A stretch of 64,000 nucleotides of DNA from assembly GCA_964448705.1 (NCBI GenBank), contig CAYUZS010000001.1:45601-109600 (forward strand). The letters are read 5' to 3'. Every line of letters begins with the position of its first letter. Within the stretch, counting starts at the first letter, position 1. A model generated the notes under the pieces. It was not told where the DNA came from. It made no database searches and saw nothing but the letters and a program-made list of their open reading frames with translations. A program made the position numbers and the translations under genes. Origin of the DNA: an uncultured Gammaproteobacteria bacterium. Lineage in GTDB: Bacteria > Patescibacteriota > Microgenomatia > UBA12405. Shown here one piece after another: positions 32,702 through 59,221 of the stretch.

Positions 32702-33286
32702 TTATTGAGTAAATTTGAAGGTGGAGAGAATTTGCTTAAATTCAGCTAGTTGTTTTCCATCACAGCCAGTGTCGCTATTACATGTCATCTCGAAACATGC
32801 TCCTTTATTAAAAAATATAGCTGATTTGTAATTTGGCCCTTCGTAACCGTTAATGGCATAAACTGTGTAATTTGGGGCACTATACATAATTTGTCCGTCG
32901 CCGACAATGTCTGAAGGTTCACAGACGATATTTAGGCCAAAATTGTAAAAAGATCCGGTATATTTATCCCCAAAATCATTTGATACCAGTTTATAATCAG
33001 AACCTTTGAGAACGACAAAAAGATCGCGTGAAATATCCTTATTGTCGGCAAAATAGGTAGATGGATAGTTGAAGGTGAAACCTTCCTGAGTGTCCGCATA
33101 GGTATTCCAAACAAGGAGAGGATCAACAGAGGGAACTACCGTCTCAACAGGAATTACTACCGGAGCAGAATTTGAGGTCGATGGCCGTTGGCTAAAAAAA
33201 TAAAGATAGATCAAAGAGACGTTAAAAATAAATAGAACGGCGATGATAAACAAATAAAATACTTGAGAAAATCCAGATTTTTTCAT
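32702..33286 (-). CDS. Type-II membrane / secreted protein, paralog family member 1. It has an N-terminal signal anchor and a conserved C-terminal domain ending QILSTFKFTQ.
   Basis: The N-terminal TM helix is FYLFIIAVLFIFNVSLIYLYFF. The motif WNTY....GFTFNYPS and the C-terminal KQILSTFKFTQ are shared with ORFs 33290-34444 and 50785-51270. Confidence 0.6.
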   Translation of the reverse strand: MKKSGFSQVFYLFIIAVLFIFNVSLIYLYFFSQRPSTSNSAPVVIPVETVVPSVDPLLVWNTYADTQEGFTFNYPSTYFADNKDISRDLFVVLKGSDYKLVSNDFGDKYTGSFYNFGLNIVCEPSDIVGDGQIMYSAPNYTVYAINGYEGPNYKSAIFFNKGACFEMTCNSDTGCDGKQLAEFKQILSTFKFTQ

Positions 33287-37518: not shown

Positions 37519-37902
37519 TTAATAATTAGTAACCCGCCGAAGGATAACAGCAGCGGAAACAGAATCTACCATTTTTTTATAATCTTTTTTCTTACCCTGA
37601 TTTTGTTGGTAGATTTCGGTAGCTTCAATGGTGGAGACAGCCTCTTCAACGGTCTCAACAGGTAATTTTATCATGTTCTGAAGACCAGCCACAAACTTTA
37701 GAGTTTGAAGTGCAAAATCACCTTCGGATAGACCAACGTATATTTTGGATATTGAATATTGCGTAATAATCCGAGAAAGATTGTCGATTAAGCGGTCGTC
37801 ATTTTTGAGAGCCGGCAAGGTAGAAATTACACCGGATACTGAATAAGCCAAACCGACATTTTTAGTGCCGTAATCAATGGCTAAAAGATTTAAATTATTC
37901 AT
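37519..37902 (-). CDS. ruvX: Putative pre-16S rRNA nuclease / Holliday junction resolvase-like YqgF/RuvX
   Basis: LLAIDYGTKNVGLAYS is the RNase H-like YqgF N-terminal motif. The protein is 127 aa. Confidence 0.85.
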   Translation of the reverse strand: MNNLNLLAIDYGTKNVGLAYSVSGVISTLPALKNDDRLIDNLSRIITQYSISKIYVGLSEGDFALQTLKFVAGLQNMIKLPVETVEEAVSTIEATEIYQQNQGKKKDYKKMVDSVSAAVILRRVTNY

Positions 37903-38632
37903 TAATATCAGCGATACGACTTTTAATTACTAAACGACGAAGAAAGGTTCCGGGAGGACTGCAGGTGATCAAACTAAAATAACGTCCATCATAACGCTGC
38001 TCCAGAACTGAGAGGTCGGTTGGCTGGACCTCGAACATTTCTTCGACTAAATATTTATAGCGAATATTATCATAATCAATATAAATCTCATCACCGGTTT
38101 TTAAACGGTAAAGAGTGGAAAAAATTGTTAAGTAAGATTTGGGATTATAAAACTGGGGCAAAACCGAATGTCCAAAAACAATACCGTTACCGGGTTGGCC
38201 GGGAAGAGCAGTATTGGGATATTGAATTAAACTTTTTTTAAGATCCATGCTGCCAACTTCAACGACGGCATCTTCAATTTTCAAAACCGGAATAGAAAGA
38301 CGATAAGAGGAGGTCGGATTGTTGGAAAGAACGGAGGCAGCCGAAGAATCCGAGTGGTTATCGGCTACAAACCAGTTATTTAATTGAGTATAGTCAGTGG
38401 AAGATAAATCACCCAAAATACTACCGGTGTGATTATAAAATTTTGAAGATAATGGGTTTAATATTTGACCAAACTTAGTTGAATATTCCAACTGAAACTG
38501 GACAATAGGTAAAAGGGCTGAAGAAATAAAGAACAAACTTACGGCAAAAAGAGCACCGGCTAAAATTTTCTTGCGACGAGGTGACGGCTTTTTGGGAGCA
38601 GTCTTGATTTCTTTTATGTAGATATAACCCAC
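37895..38632 (-). CDS. Sortase family transpeptidase (class E-like)
   Basis: It has an N-terminal TM anchor. The catalytic triad context is present: His (IVFGHS), the TLxTC motif (SLITCSPPG) and Arg (RRLVIKS). Confidence 0.8.
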   Translation of the reverse strand: MGYIYIKEIKTAPKKPSPRRKKILAGALFAVSLFFISSALLPIVQFQLEYSTKFGQILNPLSSKFYNHTGSILGDLSSTDYTQLNNWFVADNHSDSSAASVLSNNPTSSYRLSIPVLKIEDAVVEVGSMDLKKSLIQYPNTALPGQPGNGIVFGHSVLPQFYNPKSYLTIFSTLYRLKTGDEIYIDYDNIRYKYLVEEMFEVQPTDLSVLEQRYDGRYFSLITCSPPGTFLRRLVIKSRIADINE

Positions 38633-44415: not shown

Positions 44416-46536
44416 TTACTCGGTATTATTAGAATTGCGATGAGGAATAAGAATATTCCTCGGCTTCGCACCATTAACCGGGCCAACAATATTTGCCTGT
44501 TCCAGTTCATCCAATAACCTGGCAGCCCGAGCATAACCAATTTTAAAATGCCGTTGAAGATAGGTGGCAGAGGCCTTACCGGTATCCTGAATAAAGGCAA
44601 TGGCGTCGTTGAACATAGTATCGTGTTCTTCACCGGAAACAGAAACCACATTCGGATTCTTAGAACCGGGAATAGCCACCGGCTGAGCGACAATGTCGTT
44701 GTTATATTCTGTGGGTTTTTGCTGTTTAAGAAATTCAATTAAGTTATTGATGTCTTTATCGGAAACGAAACAACCCTGAACACGAACCGGCTTAGCCAAT
44801 TCAGGAGGAATATAGAGCATGTCTCCCTTGCCTAATAATTTTTCTGCTCCCGGAGAATCTAAAATTACCCGAGAGTCGGTCATAGAAGAAACGGCAAAAG
44901 CAATTCTAGTAGGAATATTGGCTTTAATCAAACCGGTAATAACGTTTACCGAAGGTCTTTGAGTGGCTAATACCAAATGTATACCGACAGCTCTGGCCAT
45001 TTGGGCAATGCGGCAAATATTATCTTCAACCTCTGATGGAGAAAACAACATAATTTCTGCTAACTCATCGATAACAATGACGATATAAGGCATGGATTGG
45101 AAACCGGCCATATTGTTATAAGTTTCAATATTCTTAGCTCCAACTTCAGTGAAAGTTTTATAGCGACGCTCCATCTCCGAAACTGCCCATTTTAAGGCAG
45201 AAACGACTTTCTCCGGTTCAACAATAACCGGGGTTAATAAATGAGGAATACCATTATAAGGTGTCAACTCCACCCGTTTTGGATCGACCATAATCAAACG
45301 AACCTCTTCAGGAGAGGCACGAAATAAAAGTGTGGAAATCCATGAATTGATACATACAGATTTTCCGGAACCGGTTTGACCGGCAATTAAAACGTGGGGC
45401 ATCTTGGTGATATCGGCCACTTTTGGATTGCCGGCAACGTCCAGACCTAAAGGTACGGCAATCTTTGATTTATGGTCTTTCATGACTGATGATTCCAAAA
45501 TGGAACGAAGAGGAACAACTTCCAGTGAACGATTGGGGACCTCGATACCAACCAAAGAACGTCCGGGGATCGGAGCTTCGACTCTGATTTGTCCACCGGG
45601 GGCGGCCAAAGCCATTGCTAAATCATTGCTTAAACTGACGATCTTGGCTAACTTAGTTCCCAAGGCCACCTCCAGAGCATATTGAGTAACTGAAGGACTA
45701 TCGTTAACCTCGGCAACTCTGGCAGTAATTCCAAAGGAATCAAGGGTGTCTTCAATAACCTGAGCATTTTTGTGAACATCTCCCCTATCAGCTTTTGCTC
45801 CGGGAGTACCGTCAAAAATGGAAAGAGGCGGATACTGCCAAATCTGATTCTTCGGTGATTTAATTGAAGAACCTGATAAATCAATTTGTTCGGGAGTATT
45901 TTTCAAGACCGGAGGGATATTGACGACACCTAAATCGTCCTTGTCTTTTGATAAATTTTTAGATTGATTTTCGTTATGGGAAATATAAACAGTATCTTCG
46001 TTTTTAGACTTGGCTGCCTTTGTTTTTGAAGCAGCCACACCAAGCGTATATTTTTTGACGATTTCAAAAACTTTAATTAGGAATTTGACAACAGTCATAA
46101 CGTCGGTGTCAAAAAGAACGACAAAACCGACGATAAAAGCAAAAATAAAAATAATAAAAGCGGCGACCTGACCAAAAAGAGATAAAATTTGATCCCAGAA
46201 AAAACGACCGACAACTCCCTGACGGAAGAGACTGACCAGAGAAATAAACATGACAATTGAACCGAGAGAAATATTTGGTTCTTTTAAAGGGATTTTAAAC
46301 TTGGAAAAAGTGAGAGCAATAAGTAACAATAAAAAAGGAATAAAAATAGAAGTGATACCGAAATATTTGTCTAAAAACAGGTTATATTGAGTGGGAATCG
46401 GACCGGCTTGTAAAAAAGAGACAACCGACAGAGCCGACATAATAGAAAAGAAGACAAAAAAAATTGTCTGAACAGTTGAAGGTTTTAGTTTTAGAGACGG
46501 CAAAAGATGCCTTTTTTTACGACCACGCTTGGACAT
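44416..46536 (-). CDS. ftsK: DNA translocase FtsK/SpoIIIE
   Basis: It has N-terminal TM helices, a RecA-like motor with Walker A (GQTGSGKS) and a C-terminal gamma winged helix. Confidence 0.93.
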   Translation of the reverse strand: MSKRGRKKRHLLPSLKLKPSTVQTIFFVFFSIMSALSVVSFLQAGPIPTQYNLFLDKYFGITSIFIPFLLLLIALTFSKFKIPLKEPNISLGSIVMFISLVSLFRQGVVGRFFWDQILSLFGQVAAFIIFIFAFIVGFVVLFDTDVMTVVKFLIKVFEIVKKYTLGVAASKTKAAKSKNEDTVYISHNENQSKNLSKDKDDLGVVNIPPVLKNTPEQIDLSGSSIKSPKNQIWQYPPLSIFDGTPGAKADRGDVHKNAQVIEDTLDSFGITARVAEVNDSPSVTQYALEVALGTKLAKIVSLSNDLAMALAAPGGQIRVEAPIPGRSLVGIEVPNRSLEVVPLRSILESSVMKDHKSKIAVPLGLDVAGNPKVADITKMPHVLIAGQTGSGKSVCINSWISTLLFRASPEEVRLIMVDPKRVELTPYNGIPHLLTPVIVEPEKVVSALKWAVSEMERRYKTFTEVGAKNIETYNNMAGFQSMPYIVIVIDELAEIMLFSPSEVEDNICRIAQMARAVGIHLVLATQRPSVNVITGLIKANIPTRIAFAVSSMTDSRVILDSPGAEKLLGKGDMLYIPPELAKPVRVQGCFVSDKDINNLIEFLKQQKPTEYNNDIVAQPVAIPGSKNPNVVSVSGEEHDTMFNDAIAFIQDTGKASATYLQRHFKIGYARAARLLDELEQANIVGPVNGAKPRNILIPHRNSNNTE

Positions 46537-46573
46537 ATAGACAGTATAAAGTAAAAATTCAGAAAATTAAAAT

Positions 46574-47995
46574 CTAATAAGAAAGACCAAATAACCAACG
46601 GTGATGAGATGGCTGGCCACAGTGGACACATTTTCCCACCTCTTCCTTGGCATCAAGAGGCAAACAACGAGTAGTGGCTTTAGTTTCGGTTTTTATTTCT
46701 GCCTCACATTCCGGATTTTCACACCAATGAGCAGAGATGAAACCACGGGTAGTACTCATTATTTTTTTAAATTCTTCATAAGAATCAACTTTAAAAGTGT
46801 GCTCTTGAGTAAATTTTTTATGGCGGTCATAAAGTTGCTGTTGAATATCCACCAACAACTTATCCAGAGTTTCAGACAATTTATCCAATGAGACGGTTTG
46901 TTTCTCGCCGGTATCACGACGATAGACAATCACTGTATTAGCCGAGACGTCGCGATCCCCCAGTTCGATTCTTAGAGGAACACCTTTTAATTCCCATTTA
47001 TTAAACTTATAGCCGGCAGTTTCACTCTCGGCATTATCTAATTTTGTTCTGTATTTACTATTAATCTCTGTGTAAATTTCCAAAGATTTTTTCGCGGCCT
47101 GTTCATGATTGGGAATGGGTACGATCACAATTTGGATAGGAGCAATTTGAGGAGGCAAGACTAAACCGTTTTCATCCCCATGAGCCAGAATTAATCCGCC
47201 AATAGATCTGGTGGAAAAACCCCATGAATTTTGCCAGGGATAAACTTTTTGGCCATCTTTGTCCTGAACGGTCCAGTCAAGAGAATGGGAAAAGTTTTGG
47301 CCGAGATCATGTGAAGTGCAGGCCTGGAGAGATTTACCGTTGGGCATCAAAGATTCAAAAGTGTAGGTATCACCGGCACCAGGGAATTTTTCTGATTGGC
47401 TCTTGCGGCCCTTTATCCCGTACATGGACATCAAATCTTTATAAGTGGATTCGTACATATTGAGAGCCCATAGGACTTCATCCATACTCTCCTGGTGAGT
47501 CAAATGAGCACAGTGACCTTCCTGCCATAAAAATTCAGAGGTCCGCAAAAAAATATAGGTACGCTTTTCCCAACGAACAATGTTGCACCACTGATTCATA
47601 CGGACCGGCAAATCACGCCAAGAACTGGTCCACTTTTTATACATATCGTACATCACCATTTCAGAAGTGGGACGGACAGCTAATTTTTCTGACAATTCTT
47701 TACCTCCGCCGATAGTTACAACAGCTAATTGGGGAGAAAAACCTTCAACATGCTCTTTTTCCTTCTGAAGATAATTCATGGGAATAAAAAGGGGGAAATA
47801 AGCATTAGAGACTCCCCTTTCTTTGATCAAAGGATCCATAAATTTTTGAATGTTTTCCCAAAGAGCATAACCATAAGGACGGATAATCATACACCCCTTT
47901 ACAGGAGCATAATCTGCAAGTTCTGCCTTCAAAACAATGTCATTGTACCAATCCGAAAGATCGGATTTAATATCTTTAAGCTGCGACTTAGTCAT
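46574..47995 (-). CDS. proS: Proline--tRNA ligase, archaeal/eukaryotic-type (no INS editing domain; C-terminal zinc-binding domain)
   Basis: The protein is 473 aa with class II motifs and a C-terminal CLPLD...CVHCGQ Cys motif typical of archaeal-type ProRS. Confidence 0.9.
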   Translation of the reverse strand: MTKSQLKDIKSDLSDWYNDIVLKAELADYAPVKGCMIIRPYGYALWENIQKFMDPLIKERGVSNAYFPLFIPMNYLQKEKEHVEGFSPQLAVVTIGGGKELSEKLAVRPTSEMVMYDMYKKWTSSWRDLPVRMNQWCNIVRWEKRTYIFLRTSEFLWQEGHCAHLTHQESMDEVLWALNMYESTYKDLMSMYGIKGRKSQSEKFPGAGDTYTFESLMPNGKSLQACTSHDLGQNFSHSLDWTVQDKDGQKVYPWQNSWGFSTRSIGGLILAHGDENGLVLPPQIAPIQIVIVPIPNHEQAAKKSLEIYTEINSKYRTKLDNAESETAGYKFNKWELKGVPLRIELGDRDVSANTVIVYRRDTGEKQTVSLDKLSETLDKLLVDIQQQLYDRHKKFTQEHTFKVDSYEEFKKIMSTTRGFISAHWCENPECEAEIKTETKATTRCLPLDAKEEVGKCVHCGQPSHHRWLFGLSY

Positions 47996-48051
47996 GCCAT
48001 ATTTTAACGGAAAAATTTAATTTTATATAAACTTGTTGATAAAATCATCAA

Positions 48052-48285
48052 ATGAAAAATGAATTGTGCCACCACTGCCAAAGAGAAGGACAAAAGATTT
48101 GTCCTTTTGAAAGAAGAATGGGAGATCTCCAAAGAAGAGTGAACCATGTTGACAAAAATGATTTAGAGGCTTTAGCCAAACTGGTAAATAATGAAAAAGA
48201 AATTCATGCTGAAGCGAGAAAGTGGGAATGCACCAAACACAACGAGTTTACTTTAAATATTCCAAAAATAAGCCCGTCCTGTTAA
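48052..48285 (+). CDS. Hypothetical small Cys/His-containing protein, 77 aa
   Basis: It starts MKNELCHHCQREGQKICPF... TGaTAAAAT lies 6 nt upstream of the ATG and there is no SD. Confidence 0.35.
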   Translation: MKNELCHHCQREGQKICPFERRMGDLQRRVNHVDKNDLEALAKLVNNEKEIHAEARKWECTKHNEFTLNIPKISPSC

Positions 48286-48339
48286 AAATAAATTTTTAAC
48301 AAAGGCGGGCAAGAGACAAAACTATAAAAAATAGTTTGG
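48273..48339. terminator. Two adjacent inverted repeats between the convergent genes 48052-48285 (+) and rnj (-): candidate bidirectional terminator region
   Basis: Hairpin 1 is cccgtcctgttaaaaat/atttttaacaaaggcggg (GC-clamped, AT-rich interior, overlaps the plus-strand stop) and on the minus strand it is followed by CTTATTTTT. Hairpin 2 is CAAAACTAT-aaaaa-ATAGTTTGG. Confidence 0.4.
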
Positions 48340-48359
48340 TCTAGAAAAATTTTAGCAAA

Positions 48360-50138
48360 TTAATCCTCGATAATTAATGGCAGAACCATGGGCTGACGGC
48401 CGGTTTTATCCAGAATTATCTGTTCAATATGAGCCTGGATTTGAGTACGTAAATACTCAAAATTAGCCGGTGTGCTGGTAGTTTCGTTGAATTTTCTAAT
48501 TACTTCCTGCTTTAGAAATTCTAAAAGATCACTATTTTCTTTGACAAAAACAAACCCACGACTAAGAATTACCGGATCTTTAGTCATTTCTCCACTGTTC
48601 TTATTGACGAGAACGACCACTGAAAACATTCCGTCTTCAGCTAATAGTTTTCGGTCACGAAGAACGGTAGCGCCAACATCGCCAATACCCAAACCGTCGA
48701 TCAACACCTTACGGAGAGGAATATGGGTTTTAGTATCGAAAGTGCCATTACCATAAAAAGTGACGGCGGAATCGATATCGGGGTTAACAAAACTGTTTTC
48801 GGTATAACCAATTTTTTTAGCGATAGATTGATAACTTTTTATATGACGGTAATTTCCGCCAATAGGAAGCAAGAATTTCGGCTTAACCAGGTCGATAAGC
48901 AAAGCGTGTTCTTTTTGATAACCATGGCCGGAAACATGCAGCTCCTCTTTTTCACCATAAACAACACTGGCTCCCATTTTAGAAAGAGTGTCGATTAAGC
49001 TATAAATATTGCTGGTAGTTCCGGGAATATAATCCGGTGAAGAAAATATGACCTTATCTCCGGATTTAATTTTTATACGATGTTTTCCCATAACCATTTT
49101 GGAAAGAGCAGAATCCGGCTGAGCAGCGAACCCGGCAACCAAGAAAATCAATTTATTGTCGGCAAAGTTTTTAATCCTTTCGGGGGCGACGATATCCGTA
49201 TCGGTGAGATTAATGTAACCTAACTCTTTGGCAATCTTAATGGCTTTATCAACGGAGTATCCGACGATAACCACCTTTCGACCGGAGCGTTTACCGTACT
49301 CGATAGCCTGACTCCAGCGGATAATATTACTACTGATAGAGGTAACAAAAACCCGTCCGGCTGCGTTTTTAATTTCGTATTCGAAATTTTCAGCAATGGA
49401 GCTTTCAGAAGGAGAAAATCCTTCGTGATCGGCACCAAGACAGTCTGACATCAGAGCAATAACTTTCTTTTCACCAACACGGGCAATATGACTGAAATCC
49501 GGAGATTTACCGTCCAGAGGGAACATATCGAATTTAAAGTCTGAGCCGTGATAGAAAATGCCAATCGGGGTGGTGATGGCAAAATGATTAGTATCCGGAA
49601 TTGAGTGTGTAACCCGAATTGAATCAACAGTAAACGGACCTTTGACGATAACATCGCCGGATTCGTAAACGTTAATTTTGGCCCGAACATTATCTTCTAC
49701 CAAACGGGATTCGATGAAAGCAGCGGCCAATTTTGGAGCATAGATAGGAATATCCGTACCTAAGATAGGCAGGATAAAACGAATAGCACCAATGTGATCT
49801 TCGTGGCCGTGAGTAATAAAGATACCTAAGATACGGTCTTTTTTATCCTGTAAATAATGAGTGTCGGGGATTTGAAGATCGACACCAAAGGCATCTTCCT
49901 CTGGGAAACCAACACCGCAGTCAACAATAATAATCTGGCTTTTAGTTTCGTCACCATTAGGAATATATTCGTAAACGAACATATTTTGAGTAACATCACC
50001 AAAACCGCCCAGAGAAATTACTCTGACAGCATCATGGGGACTGTTAAACTGTCTAACCTGATTTGTAATTCCGGAAAAAGCGGCTTGTGGCCTAGCAACC
50101 GGAGTGCTTTTGTTTGAAAAATTTTTGTTATTTATCAT
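48360..50138 (-). CDS. rnj: Ribonuclease J (metallo-beta-lactamase / beta-CASP)
   Basis: It has the HGHEDHIGA motif, beta-CASP motifs and an RNase J C-terminal domain. The protein is 592 aa. Confidence 0.9.
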   Translation of the reverse strand: MINNKNFSNKSTPVARPQAAFSGITNQVRQFNSPHDAVRVISLGGFGDVTQNMFVYEYIPNGDETKSQIIIVDCGVGFPEEDAFGVDLQIPDTHYLQDKKDRILGIFITHGHEDHIGAIRFILPILGTDIPIYAPKLAAAFIESRLVEDNVRAKINVYESGDVIVKGPFTVDSIRVTHSIPDTNHFAITTPIGIFYHGSDFKFDMFPLDGKSPDFSHIARVGEKKVIALMSDCLGADHEGFSPSESSIAENFEYEIKNAAGRVFVTSISSNIIRWSQAIEYGKRSGRKVVIVGYSVDKAIKIAKELGYINLTDTDIVAPERIKNFADNKLIFLVAGFAAQPDSALSKMVMGKHRIKIKSGDKVIFSSPDYIPGTTSNIYSLIDTLSKMGASVVYGEKEELHVSGHGYQKEHALLIDLVKPKFLLPIGGNYRHIKSYQSIAKKIGYTENSFVNPDIDSAVTFYGNGTFDTKTHIPLRKVLIDGLGIGDVGATVLRDRKLLAEDGMFSVVVLVNKNSGEMTKDPVILSRGFVFVKENSDLLEFLKQEVIRKFNETTSTPANFEYLRTQIQAHIEQIILDKTGRQPMVLPLIIED

Positions 50139-50143
50139 AATTT

Positions 50144-50785
50144 TTAAAATAATTTTAAGTTTTTTGCTTCCGAATTTGAATTTTGTTTTACTAACGGCTC
50201 GGAGGCAGGAATACCGTTTTGTAAATAGTCACCGATTCTTAGAAAATCCATTTCAAGAGCGGTTAACATGGCGCCATTTCGCAAACCAGCTGACGGGTGG
50301 TAAACCGGAATAATTGTTAAATCTAAATTACGCCAATTAAGCTGTCTGATTTGCCCGTGAACACGGGAAATAGATTCTTCCGGAAAAAAATAGTTCATAG
50401 CGAACCGACCTAAGGTAATAACTACCTTGGGTTGAATAATTTCCAATTGAGCTTTTAAGTAAGGAGTGCATACTATTATTTCTTCAGGGAGAGGATCGCG
50501 GTTTTCGGGTGGACGGTGTTTTAAAATGTTGGCGATATAAACGTCTTGCCGATCGACTTGAATCGTATTCAGAAGCTTGTTTAACAGTTTACCAGAGTTA
50601 CCGACAAAGGGCAAGCCCTGTTCATCTTCCTGAGCTCCCGGAGCTTCGCCGATAAAAACAATCTGAGCGTCGGGATTGCCGTCGCCGGGAACGGGATTAT
50701 GTGCAGTTTTATAGAGCGGACATTTTTGACATCCGGCAACCAAACCAGAGATGTATTTTAACTTTTGTTCCTTAGTTGCGGACAT
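50144..50785 (-). CDS. udg: Uracil-DNA glycosylase family 4 (Fe-S cluster type)
   Basis: It has GEAPGAQEDEQGLPFVGNSGKLL and the N-terminal CQKCPL Fe-S ligands. Confidence 0.88.
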   Translation of the reverse strand: MSATKEQKLKYISGLVAGCQKCPLYKTAHNPVPGDGNPDAQIVFIGEAPGAQEDEQGLPFVGNSGKLLNKLLNTIQVDRQDVYIANILKHRPPENRDPLPEEIIVCTPYLKAQLEIIQPKVVITLGRFAMNYFFPEESISRVHGQIRQLNWRNLDLTIIPVYHPSAGLRNGAMLTALEMDFLRIGDYLQNGIPASEPLVKQNSNSEAKNLKLF

Positions 50786-51270
50786 TATTGAGTAAATTTA
50801 AATGAGGAGAGAATTTGATCAGAAATTTTGGTATCTAAAAGTTCATCCACATTAAAACTGAATTTAAAATGATTTTTATCAGTATAGTATTTATAAATTT
50901 TTTCTGAACTTTGAATCTGATAAAAACGGTTGGAACCAAAATTCTCTTCTTTAAGAAGAGTGCAAGTTTCTTTTGGACAGGAAAATTTGTTTAGATAATC
51001 GACCGTAAAGACATCTGTACCATTTTTATCTGAAAGATAAATAGAAAAAGAAGAATCACTCTGGGTTTGCGACCAAAGAGTAAGATTGGAGGGATATTGA
51101 AATTCAAAACCGTATTCTTCATTGCGGTAGGTCTGCCAGGCGGAGGTGTTGTGCGAACCAGAGGGAGGGTTAATAATATTTTTTGTACTTAAGGGAGAAA
51201 AAATAATAATGAAACAGGAGAAAAAGATAACTGCCAGTGATAAGGGCCAAAGAAAAATTTTATTTTTCAT
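50785..51270 (-). CDS. Type-II membrane / secreted protein, paralog family member 3 (conserved C-terminal domain ending QILSSFKFTQ)
   Basis: It has an N-terminal TM helix. WQTYRNEEYGFEFQYPS and the C-terminal DQILSSFKFTQ align with the 32702 and 33290 proteins. Confidence 0.6.
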   Translation of the reverse strand: MKNKIFLWPLSLAVIFFSCFIIIFSPLSTKNIINPPSGSHNTSAWQTYRNEEYGFEFQYPSNLTLWSQTQSDSSFSIYLSDKNGTDVFTVDYLNKFSCPKETCTLLKEENFGSNRFYQIQSSEKIYKYYTDKNHFKFSFNVDELLDTKISDQILSSFKFTQ

Positions 51271-51273
51271 AGT

Positions 51274-51558
51274 TTAGAGGGCGGCACCCTGAAAGTCCGG
51301 ACAATTGTTTTTGGCCCAGTCAAGATATCCGGGTTGACACTGAGCTTTGGTGGGACCGGGACCGGGCATACAATCAACCCATTCACTTTTTGGGCAAGTG
51401 TATTTAAAAATATTAACGGTCGGAACCGGGATAGGCCGGGTGACGGCCGGAGGAGATACTTGGTAATACGGATAGAGAGTTAATAACAAAACCACAAAAG
51501 CAGTGGCTAACATAATCAAAGGAAGAATTAGATTTGAAAAAGTTTTTTCGGATTTCAT
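51274..51558 (-). CDS. Small membrane-anchored Cys-containing (4 Cys) secreted protein, 94 aa
   Basis: It has an N-terminal TM helix (ILPLIMLATAFVVLLLTL) and four Cys in the ectodomain. Confidence 0.45.
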   Translation of the reverse strand: MKSEKTFSNLILPLIMLATAFVVLLLTLYPYYQVSPPAVTRPIPVPTVNIFKYTCPKSEWVDCMPGPGPTKAQCQPGYLDWAKNNCPDFQGAAL

Positions 51559-52028
51559 AGGGCAACTAATTTTCCATTACTATTGATACATTCCGAAACC
51601 ATGGATTTGGGAAAATCATAAGGGCTAATGGTTTTACAGGGAATACTTTCGTTACCATCAAAAACAACCAGCCAATTATTGGTGTCTTTGACTGCCAAAA
51701 ATAAACCGCCTTTCATGGCTAATTTAAAAGTGACTGTGCCCTTTAGATAAGGGGTTTCTTTTTGATCGATATCAATTTGAATATCAGAAATGTTTTTGTT
51801 ATATTTTTCGGCAAAAAATTTCTTTAAAGACTCCGGATCGAGATTATCGCTGACCACAGTCGGTGCAACGGTAATAGAAGGATAGATCGATACATTAGGG
51901 TTAATAGTAGGTGTAACCACCGCCGGCTGGTTAGCACTAAGTAGAGGGAGTTTGTTTTGAAAATGAAAGTAATATCCCCAGACGCCAATAAACAAAAAAA
52001 CTATTAACCAAATGGGGAAATTTTTCAT
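51555..52028 (-). CDS. Membrane-anchored hypothetical protein, ~157 aa
   Basis: The start was taken at MKNFPIWLIVFLF (52028), which avoids overlap with the Lon-like gene. It has one TM helix and a beta-rich ectodomain. Confidence 0.45.
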   Translation of the reverse strand: MKNFPIWLIVFLFIGVWGYYFHFQNKLPLLSANQPAVVTPTINPNVSIYPSITVAPTVVSDNLDPESLKKFFAEKYNKNISDIQIDIDQKETPYLKGTVTFKLAMKGGLFLAVKDTNNWLVVFDGNESIPCKTISPYDFPKSMVSECINSNGKLVAL

Positions 52029-52032
52029 AAAA

Positions 52033-53094
52033 TTACCACTGAGGAATAAAATTTTTAACATTGGTATCGTCGATCACCACCTGTTTTTGTCTTTCCGAAA
52101 GAATAATCATGGCTACCTTACGGCACAGACCTTCAATATTTCTTTTTAAGGTACGGACACCGGCATCAAAGCCGAGAGGACGAACAATATTTGTCCACAC
52201 TTCCGGTTTAATTACTAAGTCCTGAGGAGTTAAACCCGATTCTTTTAGGGCTTGCGGCAATAAATAATCACGACCGATAGTTATTTTTTCCTCATCGTTA
52301 TAAGACGGCATTTGAATTACTTCCAAACGATCCATAACAGCAGTCGCGATTCGGGAAGTGTTGTTACAAGTGGCACAGAAAAAAACCTGAGAAAGATCGA
52401 AGGGATAGTCTATATAGTGGTCAGTGAAACGATTGTTTTGTTCCGGATCAAGCAGCTCAACCAAAACACCCATAATAGTGTTCAGTGCATCATCGGCAAC
52501 CCGGTCGATTTCGTCAAGAAGAATAACCGGATTTCTAGTTTTGCACTGAGCCAGACCGCGAATAATAGCACCGGGTTCGGATTCCGGATGCTGACGGGAT
52601 TGGCCGCGAAGATAAAGAGGATCACCTAAACCACCAAAAGGAATACGAATAATTTCCCGTCCAAGAACGGTGGCAATGGATTTGGCCATTGTTGTTTTAC
52701 CGGTGCCGACCAGTCCGACAAAAAGCATCACCGGAGCCCGAAGTTTTTGATCGGGCTGACGATTTTTTTGAAGGGTGAGGACGGAAATATATTCCAAAAT
52801 TCTTTCTTTGACACTATCCAAACCATAGTGTCCCTCGTTTAGTTTTTCGTGGGCAAACTGAAGATCGAGAATGTCCTGTGATTCTTTTTCCCAAGGTAAG
52901 GAAATAATCCAATCTATATATTTAGAAATTGACTGATAATTAGCCCAAAAAGTTTCCTCTGAACGGGCATTAATCTGAAGTTGGGAGAACATGTCTGCCA
53001 ACTTTTCTTTAAGTCCGTCAGGAAGGACAATATTTTTGCTTTTTTCAACCAGTTTATTAATCGCCTCTTCTGTCGAGAGCTGCGGAGTATCCAT
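52033..53094 (-). CDS. Lon-type AAA+ ATPase module, lacking both the N-terminal LAN domain and the C-terminal S16 peptidase domain
   Basis: HYGLDSVKERILEYISV..., Walker A GLVGTGKTT, Walker B ILLDEIDR and LLDPEQNNRFTDHY..PFDLSQVFF are Lon-specific motifs. The ORF ends where the Lon protease domain would begin, and a different gene starts 4 nt later. Confidence 0.75.
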   Translation of the reverse strand: MDTPQLSTEEAINKLVEKSKNIVLPDGLKEKLADMFSQLQINARSEETFWANYQSISKYIDWIISLPWEKESQDILDLQFAHEKLNEGHYGLDSVKERILEYISVLTLQKNRQPDQKLRAPVMLFVGLVGTGKTTMAKSIATVLGREIIRIPFGGLGDPLYLRGQSRQHPESEPGAIIRGLAQCKTRNPVILLDEIDRVADDALNTIMGVLVELLDPEQNNRFTDHYIDYPFDLSQVFFCATCNNTSRIATAVMDRLEVIQMPSYNDEEKITIGRDYLLPQALKESGLTPQDLVIKPEVWTNIVRPLGFDAGVRTLKRNIEGLCRKVAMIILSERQKQVVIDDTNVKNFIPQW

Positions 53095-53108
53095 TAGAAA
53101 AGTATACC

Positions 53109-55301
53109 TTATCTTCGAGGCCTCTGGGGGGCAGAACGGAAATTACTGAAACTACGATTACGATCAAAGTTTGGTCGATCAGGCTGACCTTCCGGCCGTG
53201 GTTGGCCAGGGTGAGCTAATTTGAATTCAGGAGAGCTCAACTTTATTTGATGATTATCGTTGAAACCGGCAATCTTAACTTTAAGTTTGTCGCCTATCTT
53301 GATGATTGAAGAAGGATCGGATAAGAAACCGCCGCTCATTTCGGAAACGTGAAGCAAGGCTTCCCGTCCCGGAAGAAATTCAACAAAAGCGCCATAGGCT
53401 TCAACCCGGGTAACAACGCCATCGTATTCTTCACCAATCTGAACTTCCTTAATCATAGATTCTATTTCAAAAGCGCAGGCATCTATTTTATCGGAATCGA
53501 CGGCAGAGATTGAAGCCCGGCCATCATCATCAATATCAATTTGAACACCGTATTTTTCCATCAAAGCCTTGATGGTTTTACCACCAGAGCCAATAACTTC
53601 ACCAATTTTGTCTTCAGGTAAAGTGACCAGTTTAATTTTCGGAGCATAGGATGACAATTGAGGACGCGGAGCAGATAAAACTGAATCCATAACATCCAAT
53701 ATTTGCATTCGAGCCTTAGTGGAAGCAGCAAAAGTGTCAGTGATCATCTGCAGAGAAAGTCCCATTCTTTTAATATCCAACTGGATGGCAGTGATACCAT
53801 TTCTGGTTCCGGTAATTTTGAAGTCCATATCACCACAGTGATCTTCGATACCGGCAATGTCGGTTAAAAGAACGTATTTTCCATTATTATCAGAAACCAT
53901 TCCTACAGAAATACCGGCCACTTTGTCTTTAATAGGCACACCGGCATCCATCAGAGACATGGTAGAACCGCAAGTGGAAGCCATGGAAGATGAACCGTTT
54001 TGAGACATGACTTCAGAAGTTAAGACGATAGTGTAAGGAAAATCTTCAATAGAAGGAATCACCGGAACTAACGCCTTTTCTGCTAATGCTCCATGACCAA
54101 TTTCCCGACGTCCGGGACGACCGACACGACCGGTTTGACCGGTAGAAAAGGGAGCGGCAGAATAATAATGAATATAACGTTTGGCAACTTCACCATTACT
54201 ATCCTGAAGATATTGCTGTTCGGCCAGAGAACCGAGAGTGGTGATAGTTAAAGCCTGAGTTAAACCTCTTTGAAAAAGGGCGGAACCATGAGTACATGGC
54301 AGAACTCCGGCTTCAATATGGAGAGGACGAATTTCATCAAAGGCCCGCTTGTCATAACGATGACCATTTAAAGTGGCTTCGCGTAGATATTTACGGACTA
54401 AAATGTCGACTCCTTCCATTAATTGACTCTCTTCAACTACTTCCTGATCGATCTTTTCCTGATAAAGTTCTTTTATTTTTTCTTTAAGAAGATCTTCTCC
54501 GGCAATATGAGCGCCATCAACTCCATCGGTAAGGAATTTTTCCAAATCCGTTTTTAGTTGTGCTTCAATTTCGGCCAATAAATCGGCTGAGAGAGATAAA
54601 TTTTCGTATAATATCTTTTTCTTGCCAACTTTGGCGGTGAAGTCGGTAATTTGTTGATTGATTTCCTGTCCGGCCTTATCAGCGGTAGACATAGCGGAAA
54701 GAACGAGATCATTACTAACGATGTTGGCGTTAGCTTCGATCATATTGATACCTTCGGCATCACGGCAAATAAGCAAGTCGAGTTGAGATTTCACCTGATC
54801 TTCAAGATTCGGGAAAAGAACAATCTGATTGTCGATTAAACCGGCACGCACCGCGGAAACAGGTCCATTAAAAGGAATATCAGAAATATTCAGAGCTGTG
54901 GAAGCGGCTAAAAATGCAGGAATAACCACATCGTTAACTTTATCGTTGCTGAGAACAGTAACCATTAATTGAACTTCGTTTTTGAAGCCTTCGGGGAAAA
55001 GCGGACGAACTGAACGGTCGATAATACGGCCAAAAAGAATGGCTGTATCAGAAGGATTACCTTCGCGTTTAATCCATTTACCGCCTTTAATTAAGCCGCC
55101 GGCATAAAGTTTGTCCACAAATTCCACTGAAAGCGGAAAATAATCTTTAGTTTTATCAAGTTTACCGAGAACAACGGTAGCTAAAACAATAGTATTGCCT
55201 GATTGGGCAAGAACAGCAGCATTAGCTTGAGGTGCTAATTGACCAGTAGTTAAGGTGATTTTTTTGTCGCCAGTGACAACATCAAAGGAAATTTTTTCCA
55301 T
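53109..55301 (-). CDS. pnp: Polyribonucleotide nucleotidyltransferase (PNPase) with an Arg/Pro-rich C-terminal tail
   Basis: The protein is 730 aa with two RNase PH domains, a KH domain and an S1 domain. It sits downstream of rpsO. Confidence 0.95.
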   Translation of the reverse strand: MEKISFDVVTGDKKITLTTGQLAPQANAAVLAQSGNTIVLATVVLGKLDKTKDYFPLSVEFVDKLYAGGLIKGGKWIKREGNPSDTAILFGRIIDRSVRPLFPEGFKNEVQLMVTVLSNDKVNDVVIPAFLAASTALNISDIPFNGPVSAVRAGLIDNQIVLFPNLEDQVKSQLDLLICRDAEGINMIEANANIVSNDLVLSAMSTADKAGQEINQQITDFTAKVGKKKILYENLSLSADLLAEIEAQLKTDLEKFLTDGVDGAHIAGEDLLKEKIKELYQEKIDQEVVEESQLMEGVDILVRKYLREATLNGHRYDKRAFDEIRPLHIEAGVLPCTHGSALFQRGLTQALTITTLGSLAEQQYLQDSNGEVAKRYIHYYSAAPFSTGQTGRVGRPGRREIGHGALAEKALVPVIPSIEDFPYTIVLTSEVMSQNGSSSMASTCGSTMSLMDAGVPIKDKVAGISVGMVSDNNGKYVLLTDIAGIEDHCGDMDFKITGTRNGITAIQLDIKRMGLSLQMITDTFAASTKARMQILDVMDSVLSAPRPQLSSYAPKIKLVTLPEDKIGEVIGSGGKTIKALMEKYGVQIDIDDDGRASISAVDSDKIDACAFEIESMIKEVQIGEEYDGVVTRVEAYGAFVEFLPGREALLHVSEMSGGFLSDPSSIIKIGDKLKVKIAGFNDNHQIKLSSPEFKLAHPGQPRPEGQPDRPNFDRNRSFSNFRSAPQRPRR

Positions 55302-55336
55302 GTAAATAAAAATAAAATAATATGACTAATTGTACC

Positions 55337-55606
55337 TTACTTCTTCATACCCAGTTCCTTGATGATCTTGGTGTATCGGTCAAGATTGTGACTTTGAAGG
55401 TAGCGCAAAAGACGACGACGTTTAGCAATTTTGCTTAAAAGACCTCTTTTTGCAGGAGAATCGTGCTTGTTATCGCCTAAATGAGATTGTAGTTTTTCCA
55501 ATTCTTTAGTTAGAATCGCAACTTGGATTTCGGGAGAACCGGTGTCGCCTTTAGCTTGAGAATACTTGGTAATAATTTCGTTTTTTTCTTCTTTGGTTAA
55601 TGCCAT
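55337..55606 (-). CDS. rpsO: 30S ribosomal protein S15
   Basis: The protein is 89 aa with the S15 signature (...HL..N.HD..S.RGLL..I..RR.LL.YL). Confidence 0.95.
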   Translation of the reverse strand: MALTKEEKNEIITKYSQAKGDTGSPEIQVAILTKELEKLQSHLGDNKHDSPAKRGLLSKIAKRRRLLRYLQSHNLDRYTKIIKELGMKK

Positions 55607-55690
55607 AGATTATTCGGCTATTTGTCGGTTAAATATTAATGTATTGGAATGGCTACCAACGCACCGATGTAATAGTCAGGTAGGATTATA

Positions 55691-55930
55691 TCACGGTATC
55701 AATTTAATAGTGTAGTTTTCTTTAACTCTTTTTTCTTCGGGAACCCAACAAAGATTTCTAACCTGAATACCGGTAATTTCTGGTTGACCAGATTTAGTAG
55801 TGACTTCAACAAAACAACCGCCGCATTTATCTTTGAGAAAAGAAGTGCGTTTTTTGTCGGGATGAACATATTGTCTATCAGCTGCATTGCATGGATCAGG
55901 TGCTATCACGTCATAAAATTCTGCTGTCAT
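55691..55930 (-). CDS. Hypothetical small Cys-containing protein, 79 aa
   Basis: It has four Cys including CGGC. It lies between a DHH-like gene and rpsO, where rbfA/truB are often found, but it matches neither by eye. Confidence 0.35.
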   Translation of the reverse strand: MTAEFYDVIAPDPCNAADRQYVHPDKKRTSFLKDKCGGCFVEVTTKSGQPEITGIQVRNLCWVPEEKRVKENYTIKLIP

Positions 55931-55954
55931 AAGTTTATCTATTTTAATTATAAA

Positions 55955-56749
55955 TTAAACAGTTGTATTTGGGTTGGGCTGATTAGTGCCGGCGGATAAG
56001 TTTCCACTTTTTTCAACCGATTCTATGGGCATTTGGTTAAGTGTCGGATCTTCGACTGGCTGAGTAGCTCTGAGACAAATTGCTCCGGCTTCGAAAGTTT
56101 CCGGAGAAACGTTAACAGAGAAAGACTGGGTAGCCACCCGAAGACCGATTAACAGATCTTTGGCGGAATCCATATCCAATTGCAAACCAAGCATCGGCAA
56201 AAAGAAGGTAAAAATTTCAGAAAAAGGAGCATCGGGATCAATTAAAGAGGCTTTAGCCCAAGCTTTGGAAACGTTAGTTGGGGAAATAAATACCCAATTA
56301 CCTTTAGCAGTTAAAGAAGCATTGGCACCTAAAGCTGTTTCTTCACCAAGCATGAAACAAAGATCGGCAGCAGCGGTATCGTTGTTGACGATGATCTTGT
56401 CATTACCAATTTTAGGAAAATCAGGTTTAGTGGTGACAACTAAGTTTAGACGTCCACCATCGTCGTTATAGGAAACATTTTCAATCTGATCAACTGGATA
56501 ATCAAAAGAGATTACCAAATCATTTTTAATAAGATTATCGGTTAACAATTCCAAACCACTAAGCTTGGAATAATTTTGATCCGGTTTTTGGGGACAAAAA
56601 ACTTTAACGTCTTTACCGGATTTTTTAAGTGAAAGCGCCAAAGCCAAACCGGCACCAACGCTGTCAACATTCATCTGAGGAATAACAACCAAAGCAGTTT
56701 TGGCGTTGTCAACTAAAACTTTGATATCAGAAACGTTGTAATTTTTCAT
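55955..56749 (-). CDS. DHH-family-like protein (NrnA-like position downstream of infB); apparently degenerate, with no DHH motif
   Basis: The N-terminus ALVVIPQMNVDSVGAGLALALSLKKSGKDVKV resembles the NrnA motif I/II region (h.H..PDGDA.GS.LAL...L...GK.V). However, the metal-binding His/Asp residues and the DHH and GGGH motifs are absent. Confidence 0.35.
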   Translation of the reverse strand: MKNYNVSDIKVLVDNAKTALVVIPQMNVDSVGAGLALALSLKKSGKDVKVFCPQKPDQNYSKLSGLELLTDNLIKNDLVISFDYPVDQIENVSYNDDGGRLNLVVTTKPDFPKIGNDKIIVNNDTAAADLCFMLGEETALGANASLTAKGNWVFISPTNVSKAWAKASLIDPDAPFSEIFTFFLPMLGLQLDMDSAKDLLIGLRVATQSFSVNVSPETFEAGAICLRATQPVEDPTLNQMPIESVEKSGNLSAGTNQPNPNTTV

Positions 56750-56764
56750 AATTTATGTTGTTTT

Positions 56765-58204
56765 CTATTTCTTATAGGCTATTATATCATCGTTTATTTT
56801 AAAGTCAACATAGGGCTTAAAGGTCATACCACAGTCGTTTCCGGACTTGATTTTTTCGATAATGTTTTTACCCTGACGGATACCTTCAACTTTAGTGTCC
56901 TTGATAATGTCTGTATCACGCTTAAGGTGAATAGCATCATTCTTGCTGATTTCACCCTTGGTTATCTTAATACCGGCAATGCGGACCTTATCGATCTTAA
57001 ATTCAGCAATAATTTTTCCTTCACCTATAATTGTTTCTTCAATGGTAGGATCGAGCATTTTTAATACCTGAGCCTGGATATTGTCGATAATTTCGTAAAT
57101 AATTTTAGACTGATGGATAACAACTTTTTCGTTGTCAGCTAAATTTTTGATGAATTTGGGAATAGAAACATTAAAGGCAAAAATTTGGCTCTTGGCAGCC
57201 GAAGCGACAAAAACATCATGGTCGGTAACAGGGCCAACTCCGGCATAAATAACTTCTACGTCATCAGAAAAACTATTCTTTAGAGCTTCAAGAGTGCCCT
57301 CAACATCGGCTTTTATGACTACCGGTAAACGGGAAATATTCTGATCTGAAGAAGTTTCATGATCTTTTTTAGCTTCTTCTACCAGTAATTCCTGTTTGAC
57401 CGAAGTAATTAAACAACCGGTTGAAGGAGTTTTTTCAAATCCAAGTATTTCTACCGGAGTTGAAGGCGGAGCAACGGTGAGTGAATGACCATTGGAATCC
57501 AAGAGAGCTTTAACTTTTCCCGATATCTCTTGAGCATAGATATAATCACCCAAACGGAGAGTGCCTCTTTTAATAATGACTGAAGCGACCGGCCCACAGT
57601 TTTTATCAAGCCGGGATTCGACCACAAAAGCTTCTAAAGGAGCATCGGCTTCGTTTTTCAACTCCATAACATCAGCATGTAAAAGAATTAAATCCAACAG
57701 TTCCTCGATCCCCTGTCCGGTTTTAGCGGAAACAGGAACGATAGGCACCTGGCCGCCATATTCTTCTGGAACCAAATCCTGTTCAACAAGCTGGCCTTTG
57801 ATTTTTTCCGGATTAGCATCAGCTAAATCCATTTTGTTTAAGGCAATAATTACCGGTAGATTGGCTTTTTTAATCTGAACAATGCTTTCCTTGGTCTGAG
57901 CCATAACGCCATCGGTAGCCGAGATCACTAGAACTACTAGGTCAGTGATATGAGCACCTCTGATGCGCATGTTATTGAAGGCGGCATGACCGGGAGTATC
58001 AATAAAAGTAATAAGGCTCTTTTTGCCGTTTTTTAGGGTAACTTCAGTTTGATATGAAGAAATATGCTGGGTAATTCCGCCGGCCTCTTTTTTGGCAATG
58101 TTAGCAGAGCGAATACGATCTAAAAGTGTTGTTTTACCATGATCAATATGACCCATGACAGCAACGATAGGCGGGCGAAAATTAGTGTCATTATTTACGG
58201 TCAT
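56765..58204 (-). CDS. infB: Translation initiation factor IF-2, minimal form of 479 aa (G domain plus C-terminal domains only)
   Basis: It starts directly at the G domain (PPIVAVMGHIDHGKTTLLD). It lies downstream of nusA. Confidence 0.92.
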   Translation of the reverse strand: MTVNNDTNFRPPIVAVMGHIDHGKTTLLDRIRSANIAKKEAGGITQHISSYQTEVTLKNGKKSLITFIDTPGHAAFNNMRIRGAHITDLVVLVISATDGVMAQTKESIVQIKKANLPVIIALNKMDLADANPEKIKGQLVEQDLVPEEYGGQVPIVPVSAKTGQGIEELLDLILLHADVMELKNEADAPLEAFVVESRLDKNCGPVASVIIKRGTLRLGDYIYAQEISGKVKALLDSNGHSLTVAPPSTPVEILGFEKTPSTGCLITSVKQELLVEEAKKDHETSSDQNISRLPVVIKADVEGTLEALKNSFSDDVEVIYAGVGPVTDHDVFVASAAKSQIFAFNVSIPKFIKNLADNEKVVIHQSKIIYEIIDNIQAQVLKMLDPTIEETIIGEGKIIAEFKIDKVRIAGIKITKGEISKNDAIHLKRDTDIIKDTKVEGIRQGKNIIEKIKSGNDCGMTFKPYVDFKINDDIIAYKK

Positions 58205-58225
58205 ATTTAGTTTTAAACTACTATT

Positions 58226-59221
58226 TTATTTTCTGGCAGTGGTCGAACCGCTGACCTTTATTTCCAGGCCAGTCAAAATACCTGCCAAGCGAACGTTTTC
58301 CCCACCAGCACCGATGGCTAGAGCCAAATCGGTTTCAGGAACCTCAACGGTAGCTAAACCGTTGGCAACAGAACTGACCGTAACATTTTGTGCCGGAGAC
58401 AAAGCATTAGCAATAAATTGATTGATATTTTTGGAAAAAGCGATAACGTCCACTTTTTCGTCCGAAGGTAACTCATTTAAAACTGCCTGAATACGGGAAC
58501 CTTTTTGGCCGATACAGGAACCGACAGGATCGACTCCGGGTTGGGTGCTGCTGACGGCAATTTTGGTTCTTTCACCGGATGATCGGGCAATTCTTTCGAT
58601 AGTAACAATCCGATTTCCAACTTCGGGAACTTCCCGAATAAAAAGTTGTTTAATAAATTCAGGATCGCGGCGGGAAAGAATAATGTCTTTACGACCGGTA
58701 TCATCTTCAATTATTGATTTTAAAAGAAAGAGTTTTTTTGAACCCAAGATAAGCTCCTCATTTCGAATTTGTTCATCTTTAGGGCAAATAGCTTCTGTTT
58801 TGCCGATACCGACTGTCATTTTGTAAGGATCAATGCGTAAAACAACTCCCGGAATCAAAACACCGATTTTATTGGAATATTCAGCCACAACAGTATCTCT
58901 TTCCGCTTCACGAATTTTTTGATCGATAACCTGTTTGGCGGTTTGGGCGGCAATACGGCCAAAACCCGGAGGAGTGACATCCGTACGTTGATCACCGACA
59001 ACTTTAAAAATTGAAAATGATCCTGAAGCAGGCACAATTTCAACTTCAAAAATATCCTCGTCGGGGACAATAATACCGTGTTCTTTTTGATCCCTTTTAT
59101 AGGCAGAAACTAAACCAAGTTCGATGGAATCCAGAATATCCTGAACGTCAATATTACGCTCGCCGGCGATTTGAGCGACAGCGGCAGCAAATTCGGTTTT
59201 AGGCAGTCTTTTAATATCCAT
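58226..59221 (-). CDS. nusA: Transcription termination/antitermination factor NusA
   Basis: The start was taken at MDIKRLPKTEF (cat at 59219-59221), because the longer ORF would include the upstream terminator hairpin. It has an S1 domain and two KH domains. Confidence 0.9.
   Translation of the reverse strand: MDIKRLPKTEFAAAVAQIAGERNIDVQDILDSIELGLVSAYKRDQKEHGIIVPDEDIFEVEIVPASGSFSIFKVVGDQRTDVTPPGFGRIAAQTAKQVIDQKIREAERDTVVAEYSNKIGVLIPGVVLRIDPYKMTVGIGKTEAICPKDEQIRNEELILGSKKLFLLKSIIEDDTGRKDIILSRRDPEFIKQLFIREVPEVGNRIVTIERIARSSGERTKIAVSSTQPGVDPVGSCIGQKGSRIQAVLNELPSDEKVDVIAFSKNINQFIANALSPAQNVTVSSVANGLATVEVPETDLALAIGAGGENVRLAGILTGLEIKVSGSTTARK

Follow-up and report, generated by a model that had tools for sequence, protein, structure and literature searches.

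A stand-alone Lon-clade AAA+ ATPase without a protease domain, conserved in Microgenomatia

Lon is the textbook AAA+ protease, with motor and peptidase fused. The 64-kb window studied here (the whole stretch of DNA that was analysed, from contig CAYUZS010000001.1) carries a gene, designated lonAAA, which clearly encodes a Lon-clade AAA+ ATPase, although its product misses three defining LonA features: the S16 domain, the LAN domain and the pore-loop-1 pair. Considered jointly, our data make it fairly probable that lonAAA is a functional stand-alone ATPase derived from LonA, that it is a core gene acting as a protease-free remodeller, and that three small anchored proteins encoded downstream (d1, d2 and d3) are not its partners. 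A first-pass annotation of the same DNA had described a Lon AAA+ module of 353 aa without a peptidase domain, ending at the lid and followed 4 nt on by the next gene and by three small anchored proteins. Every descriptive detail proved accurate, and the identification of the module is borne out by Pfam, NCBIfam, the match to a solved structure and AlphaFold/Foldseek.

Domain composition and residues of lonAAA

The gene and its elements, from the protein's N-terminus to its C-terminus, are:

52033..53094, minus strand: lonAAA, 353 aa, stand-alone Lon-clade AAA+ ATPase consisting of an N-terminal domain (NTD) three-helix bundle, an alpha/beta ATPase domain and a lid
52900..53073, minus strand: NTD three-helix (NTD-3H) bundle, residues 8-65, with helices 8-20, 26-44 and 46-65 in the model
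52693..52716, minus strand: Walker A, G127-LVGTGK-T134, with G127, G130, G132, K133 and T134 invariant
52570..52608, minus strand: pore loop 1, residues 163-175, RGQSRQHPESEPG (RGQSRQ-H-P-ESEPG), in place of RGHRRTY[IV]GAMPG of Lon
52510..52521, minus strand: Walker B, L192-L193-D194-E195, invariant
52465..52503, minus strand: pore-loop-2 region, residues 198-210, RVADDALNTIMGV, conserved in the family and unlike KMSSD[FWM]RGDPSSA of Lon
52363..52365, minus strand: sensor-1 N244, invariant, equivalent to N473 of Yersinia/E. coli Lon (PMC7239648)
52327..52329, minus strand: trans-acting arginine finger R256, invariant, equivalent to R484 (PMC7239648)
52153..52155, minus strand: sensor-2 R314, invariant, equivalent to R542 (PMC7239648)
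52036..52050, minus strand: C-terminal tail FIPQW; [FY][ILM]PQ[WY] stands at the very end of the protein in 70/82 family members

Pfam detects in lonAAA an AAA domain (residues 123-261, E 2.5e-17) and a Lon_lid domain (residues 284-338, E 5.4e-11), and nothing else. The NCBIfam equivalog for endopeptidase La, TIGR00763 'lon', is matched with an E-value of 3.4e-96 over model positions 252-572 of 795 only, and the bit score of 323.5 lies below the curated equivalog cut-off set for LonA (608.05), of which it reaches about half. The closest solved structure is B. subtilis Lon (3m6a, E 6e-77), the alignment stopping at the lid/linker 'NLQDFIG' that precedes the protease domain. In the AlphaFold model, a monomer computed from an alignment of 33 sequences (predicted local distance difference test, pLDDT, 90.9), three N-terminal helices are followed by a complete AAA+ fold. 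Foldseek superposes this model on LonA structures (template modelling, TM, score about 0.85) and on 6n2i, the isolated AAA+ domain of E. coli Lon (TMt 0.86).

No C-terminal S16 peptidase domain with a Ser-Lys dyad was found in lonAAA, the open reading frame (ORF) stopping after the lid and Pfam giving no match to Lon_C, and no N-terminal LAN (LON_substr_bdg) domain was found either, since the match to TIGR00763 begins only at model position 252. Because the PNPase stop codon lies only 14 nt upstream of the lonAAA start, there is no space for an N-domain. On the other side, the ATG of d1 at 52028 is 4 nt past the lonAAA stop, and this start is backed by alignment with the homologue of relative L005.

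Residue equivalences are given in the numbering that Shin et al. 2020 (PMC7239648) use for Yersinia Lon; the roles of Y398/I399, R484, E447, N473 and R542 are also taken from that paper, and invariance is meant across 82 family sequences. In these, 66 positions are invariant, among them those of Walker A and Walker B, N244, R256 and R314. The inter-subunit acidic bridge is retained in the family as E218, within LDPEQN (E447 of Yersinia Lon), as is the tyrosine of the pre-sensor-1 hairpin (Y227, equivalent to Y456), and both Y59 and W62, the equivalents of Y294 and W297 of Yersinia Lon (PMC7239648), are nearly invariant. The residues of nucleotide binding and hydrolysis are all invariant in the lonAAA family, including the trans arginine finger and the acidic bridge E218, a pattern that fits an active, ring-forming AAA+ ATPase of the HCLR clade. 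Since a trans-acting finger and a bridging glutamate make sense solely in an oligomeric ring, we infer that lonAAA would assemble into one.

The pore-loop-1 consensus of the 82 Microgenomatia members is RGQSR-x-[H 40 / Y 18 / F 10]-P-[E/D]-A-E-P-G, with a net charge of about -1 in the lonAAA family versus +2 in Lon. The pair Y398-I399 of Lon is not present: H169-P170 are found there in lonAAA, and [H/Y/F/other]-P-[E/D] in the family. The loops with which Lon grips and threads polypeptides are swapped in the lonAAA family for a different, conserved and net-acidic loop.

Conservation and extent of the protease-less clade

Three independent Logan assemblies encode the identical lonAAA protein. 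Among 5.8 billion proteins searched, more than 120 clusters of 348-374 aa are 71-100% identical to lonAAA, none of them with Lon_C; the clusters that bear a name belong to Shapirobacteria, Woesebacteria or the Microgenomates group. When one genome per species was scanned, 80 loci were obtained with lonAAA at 50-78% identity, from Shapiro-, Woese-, Gottesman-, Levy- and Cerribacteria and Microgenomatus. In 82 of 82 non-redundant related Microgenomatia loci the frame ends just after the lid; most of these ORFs measure 343-385 aa, and the few longer ones owe their extra length to a short N-terminal extension or to a start codon further upstream. Identity in the five closest comparisons amounts to 0.88-0.91 at codon position 2 and only 0.38-0.48 at position 3, and the median identity of lonAAA over the same 59 genomes (69%) stands beside those of PNPase (67%), RNase J (73%) and S15 (72%). 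The gene is intact and under strong purifying selection.

Many genome records that carry this candidate phyla radiation (CPR) gene block, i.e., those of L015, L016, L018, L020-L022, L075, L080 and others, are titled 'uncultured Gammaproteobacteria', 'Pseudomonadales', 'Methanoperedens', 'Methylomirabilota' or 'Lysobacterales', and are probably mislabelled or mis-binned metagenome-assembled genomes.

An exhaustive HMMER search among 1.84 billion representatives recovered ordinary Lons of ~780 aa at about 40% identity to lonAAA, and also protease-less relatives of 343-669 aa at 39-53% identity. Pfam finds only AAA and Lon_lid in these relatives, and their additional N- or C-terminal residues are Q/P/S/T-rich low-complexity sequence with no LAN, transmembrane or peptidase domain. 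Among 150 representatives, all ordinary Lons carry RGHRRTY[IV]G[AS][ML]PG or a near variant, and all protease-less sequences carry ...[PD][DE]AEPG with no conserved aromatic, so the altered pore loop and the missing protease domain match one-to-one. A neighbour-joining tree built from 120 single-module sequences groups the 23 protease-less ones, a set defined by the pore-loop signature, in an exclusive split. Profile searches from distant members extended the group to proteins of 342-483 aa from Dojkabacteria, Levybacteria and Woykebacteria, all without Lon_C and separated by a clean score gap from full-length Lons. Taken together, the exclusive clade, the pore-loop signature and the distant members indicate that the loss of the peptidase and that of the translocation loop are coupled and that both are old.

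Two further architectures were seen among the HMMER matches. Long Q/P/S/T-rich extensions of low complexity and up to 330 residues are found in some proteins of the protease-less clade, P0143 (residues 1-335), P0137, P0142, P0154 and P0160 (350-548), at the place where the LAN or the protease domain would be. The head of the match list is occupied by Lons with two or three tandem AAA+ modules and a single Lon_C (P0121, 1113 aa, Candidatus Dependentiae; P0122, 997 aa; P0124-P0139 and others), in which the pore loops vary between modules (e.g. LRGHNRTW...); this is not the textbook architecture.

Proposed function, gene neighbourhood and competing explanations

We propose that lonAAA would descend from LonA by loss of the LAN and S16 domains, the three-helix bundle, lid and ATPase domain being kept, and that it would have been inherited vertically as a core gene of the Microgenomatia/Dojkabacteria part of the CPR. 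Judging from its residues, the protein may assemble into a Lon-like ring and cycle ATP, and it could act as a protease-free remodeller or chaperone: it would hold or pry substrates, possibly of basic character, instead of passing them into a chamber for proteolysis. The proteins d1-d3 would have been inserted into a variable slot downstream of lonAAA in a Shapirobacteria-like sub-lineage only, without being partners. Four points weigh against this proposal: (i) both the formation of a ring and the lack of threading are deduced from sequence; (ii) 68/82 Microgenomatia members still have H, Y or F where Lon has Y398, so that some gripping of substrate by lonAAA is possible; (iii) a partner, which might be a peptidase from another locus, could dock on the C-terminal [FY][ILM]PQ[WY] tail; and (iv) the sequence covered amounts to 64 kb of the window genome and ~20 kb per relative, which leaves room for a split Lon. 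The terminal aromatic of the tail recalls the docking tails of other AAA+ unfoldases.

The genes surrounding lonAAA that are conserved or variable in its relatives are:

55337..55606, minus strand: rpsO (S15), in the collinear backbone infB-(DHH-like)-rpsO-pnp-lonAAA-rnj-ftsK
53109..55301, minus strand: pnp (PNPase), conserved upstream neighbour of lonAAA
50144..50785, minus strand: udg, family-4-type uracil-DNA glycosylase, variable occupant of the slot between lonAAA and rnj
48360..50138, minus strand: rnj (RNase J), conserved downstream neighbour of lonAAA across the clade

This backbone, rpsO-pnp-lonAAA-(udg)-rnj-ftsK, raises the question of whether lonAAA is an accessory of RNA metabolism, co-transcribed with PNPase and RNase J and remodelling a ribonucleoprotein or degradosome in a role like that of a DEAD-box helicase. 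Of the 71 loci whose flanks were long enough, 65 have PNPase upstream and 69 have RNase J downstream, in both cases on the strand of lonAAA and with a gap to RNase J of at most 200 nt in 37 of the latter, and the window genes from pnp to rnj are separated by gaps of at most 14 nt or overlap. The order rpsO-pnp-[variable]-lonAAA-rnj-ftsK is kept in the most distant subclades, where insertions, some of them on the opposite strand, are found between pnp and lonAAA and where lonAAA still directly precedes rnj, which is suggestive. However, infB-DHH-rpsO-pnp-lonAAA-rnj-ftsK is collinear in nearly all these genomes, and because the whole block is collinear the adjacency of lonAAA to pnp and rnj is by itself weak evidence for a functional link. 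Tight adjacency (36/63 for lonAAA-pnp and 38/69 for lonAAA-rnj) is intermediate between that of rpsO-pnp (64/64) and that of rnj-ftsK (12/61), as in inherited synteny. Moreover, the distant members L088 and L089 have no rnj nearby, one of them lacking a nearby pnp as well, and an acidic pore loop would be unsuited to RNA binding. A promoter and terminator scan of 46000-58500 gave counts at shuffle expectation. We regard a role in RNA metabolism as doubtful.

The block showed other features of its own. Two conserved proteins are encoded between infB and rpsO, one of 254-264 aa (window 55955-56749, minus strand), with a weak DHH match in relative L090, and one of 78-79 aa (window 55691-55930, minus strand) with no Pfam match; E. 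coli has rbfA-truB at this place. A TIR-domain gene (CAP12-PCTIR_TIR) and a small ORF stand on the opposite strand between pnp and lonAAA in the distant relative L091 (4712-5824, minus strand). The two sides of lonAAA look like hot spots of insertion, with MntP found there in L004 and with DUF4012 and a PIN/HTH pair in L088. Elsewhere in the window, a sortase-domain protein (37895-38632, minus strand) adjoins a 708-aa protein without Pfam match (38633-40759, minus strand), and the two are possibly a pilin-like pair, or else a sortase with its substrate.

Two-component AAA+ proteases exist, and lonAAA could by analogy be one half of a split Lon: paired with a separate S16 peptidase ring, or sharing mixed rings with a full-length Lon, in either case from another place in the genome, it would restore an ATP-dependent protease comparable to ClpXP or HslUV. 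The first-pass annotation had listed a split Lon among its explanations, and the end of the family exactly at the lid/protease linker of Lon, together with its conserved aromatic C-terminal tail, speaks for it. The S16 and LAN domains were searched by tblastn, by a regular expression for the Ser-Lys dyad motif and with hidden Markov models (HMMs) built from 21 genuine Lon P- and N-domains; the first tblastn query was an approximate E. coli Lon P-domain, and the search was repeated with the 21 real P-domains and the HMM. Neither the 64-kb window nor the 89 lonAAA loci (1.5 Mb, about 10 kb on each side, in about 85 genomes) yielded an S16 domain, the HMM of the 21 N-domains found no LAN domain in the same sequences, and Pfam found no S16-type peptidase among the larger unassigned ORFs of the window. 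Since the halves of a recently split gene are expected to stay adjacent, this absence counts against a split Lon, which is left without support locally. A protease acting in trans is also argued against by the pore, because a chamber-feeding motor would keep the Tyr-Ile/Val pincer, and the TY[IV]G translocation loop of such motors (PMC7239648) is lost in every protease-less member. A weak argument in the same direction is that, in the accessible part of supplementary file 4 of Meheust 2019, Lon_C (PF05362) occurs solely in the Lon entry fam11706. A split Lon is, in our opinion, unlikely.

A different partnership had been suggested by the genes that directly follow lonAAA in the window; these genes, and the paralogue of one of them, are:

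51555..52028, minus strand: d1, 157 aa, N-terminally anchored, with a linker rich in Pro, Thr and Val and with 2 Cys in the C-terminal domain
51274..51558, minus strand: d2, 94 aa, N-terminally anchored, 4 Cys, lineage-specific
50785..51270, minus strand: d3, 161 aa, N-terminally anchored, of the W.TY...YGF.F.YP ... ILSxFKF family, with a weak PsbP_2 match
32702-33286, minus strand: d3 paralogue, 194 aa, N-terminally anchored, with W.TY...YGF.F.YP and ILSTFKF motifs and no Pfam match

The first-pass annotation had seen here a dedicated membrane-protein neighbourhood, in which a protease-less unfoldase would serve the extraction, assembly or quality control of the three adjacent anchored proteins. 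In agreement with this idea, the spacer between lonAAA and d1 is 4 nt, a d1 homologue directly follows lonAAA in a subset of close relatives only (e.g. L005, 38% identity), and 25 of the 60 ORFs inserted in the lonAAA-rnj slot carry an N-terminal hydrophobic segment. The co-conservation data led us to reject it: homologues of d1, d2 or d3 are detectable downstream of lonAAA in only 15/71 loci, mostly loci at least 72% identical to the window, and no ORF lies between lonAAA and rnj in 40/69 loci, although lonAAA is conserved at 50-78% in all. The truncated form and the three small neighbours, which the first-pass annotation had paired as an arrangement to look for in related genomes, have therefore fared differently, the former being kept in 82/82 loci and the latter not. 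The d3 family is dispersed, with one paralogue in the window 18 kb away, which does bear out the membership of the third small protein in a QILSxFKFTQ family. Each of d1, d2 and d3 has one N-terminal hydrophobic segment and a predicted cytoplasmic part of about 3-9 residues, and such a handful of residues argues against conserved partners of lonAAA; no member of the lonAAA family has a membrane anchor, the terminal extensions being of low complexity. A dedication of lonAAA to these proteins is very improbable, and we take d1-d3 to be lineage-specific proteins of extracytoplasmic location that occupy a slot prone to insertions, rather than conserved partners of lonAAA, a cytoplasmic ATPase. The single-sequence AlphaFold model of d1 has a mean pLDDT of 46.9, the N-terminal helix alone being confident, and relatives of the d3 paralogue elsewhere carry up to three repeats of the d3 unit and a Gmad2 domain (L005 12105-13700).

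Finally, the decaying gene or assembly frameshift of an ordinary lon that the first-pass annotation had also considered, for which the short length of the ORF and nothing else speaks, is ruled out with near certainty by the same short form in all 82 related loci, the agreement of the three assemblies, the invariant catalytic motifs, the codon-position pattern of purifying selection and the absence of Lon_C similarity in any frame downstream, where tblastn, the P-domain HMM and the Ser-Lys regular expression were all empty for a frameshifted or relic protease domain.

Relation to known systems and significance

LonA (endopeptidase La; MEROPS S16; TIGR00763; B. subtilis 3m6a, Yersinia 6on2, human LONP1) is 35-45% identical to lonAAA. 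The two share the NTD three-helix bundle, the AAA+ alpha/beta domain and the Lon-specific lid, and with them Walker A and B, sensor-1, the arginine finger, sensor-2, the LDPEQN acidic bridge and the pre-sensor-1 hairpin tyrosine. In contrast, the LAN substrate-binding domain, the long helix and the S16 Ser-Lys peptidase domain are found in LonA and not in lonAAA, the acidic HPE(A/S)EPG of lonAAA pore loop 1 stands against YIGAMPG in LonA, and pore loop 2 is also replaced. The boundaries of the E. coli 6n2i Lon AAA+ module match those of lonAAA almost residue for residue; 6n2i, however, is a laboratory truncation, whereas lonAAA is natural, conserved in a clade and altered in its pore loops.

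The closest described analogue of lonAAA is LonC of Meiothermus taiwanensis (PMC3391209, PMC13069640), a Lon-like protease that does not use ATP to power unfolding and thus likewise a derivative of Lon that has naturally lost one of its two activities. It is a mirror image: LonC has kept the protease and has a dead ATPase, whereas in lonAAA the ATPase appears intact and the protease is gone. BrxL of the BREX defence system also counts among AAA+ proteins that are related to Lon without being conventional proteases, but it keeps a Lon-protease-like C-terminal domain and sits in defence islands, whereas the context of lonAAA is housekeeping. A defence-system or BrxL reading was discarded on this context and on the PADLOC result, which gave weak generic AAA+ matches and no BrxL. 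Protease-free relatives of AAA+ proteases are known in the chloroplast FtsHi/Ycf2, in ClpB as compared with ClpA, and in ClpX without ClpP. In these the motor of an AAA+ protease is likewise reused as a remodeller, and lonAAA may by analogy work as they do, but they belong to other AAA+ families.

In the literature searched, a Lon that naturally lacks the protease is not described for CPR or for any other group, in line with the earlier suggestion that such a system is undescribed. A 2022 paper on Lon subfamilies (PMC9569914) states that every Lon has an ATPase and a protease domain, and Meheust 2019 puts all Lon forms in one family, present in 911 CPR genomes and with the full architecture in 56% of its members. 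In databases, proteins of the lonAAA type are named 'AAA family ATPase' or 'ATP-dependent Lon protease', and the latter label is misleading.

It is a bolder and rather tentative proposition, which we hold to be improbable as it stands, that lonAAA represents a previously undescribed AAA+ class in a major CPR radiation (Microgenomatia, Dojkabacteria and relatives), namely a Lon-derived core gene with an acidic pore, acting as a dedicated remodeller, that may replace Lon proteolysis. If this were true, possible targets would be basic ribosomal or RNA-binding proteins, or the co-transcribed RNase J/PNPase degradosome. In the lonAAA clade, nature offers an experiment on the capacities of a Lon motor deprived of proteolysis and a clean test of how the chemistry of pore loops and the presence of a degradation chamber co-evolve; the clade also bears on the organisation of proteostasis in CPR bacteria with reduced genomes.

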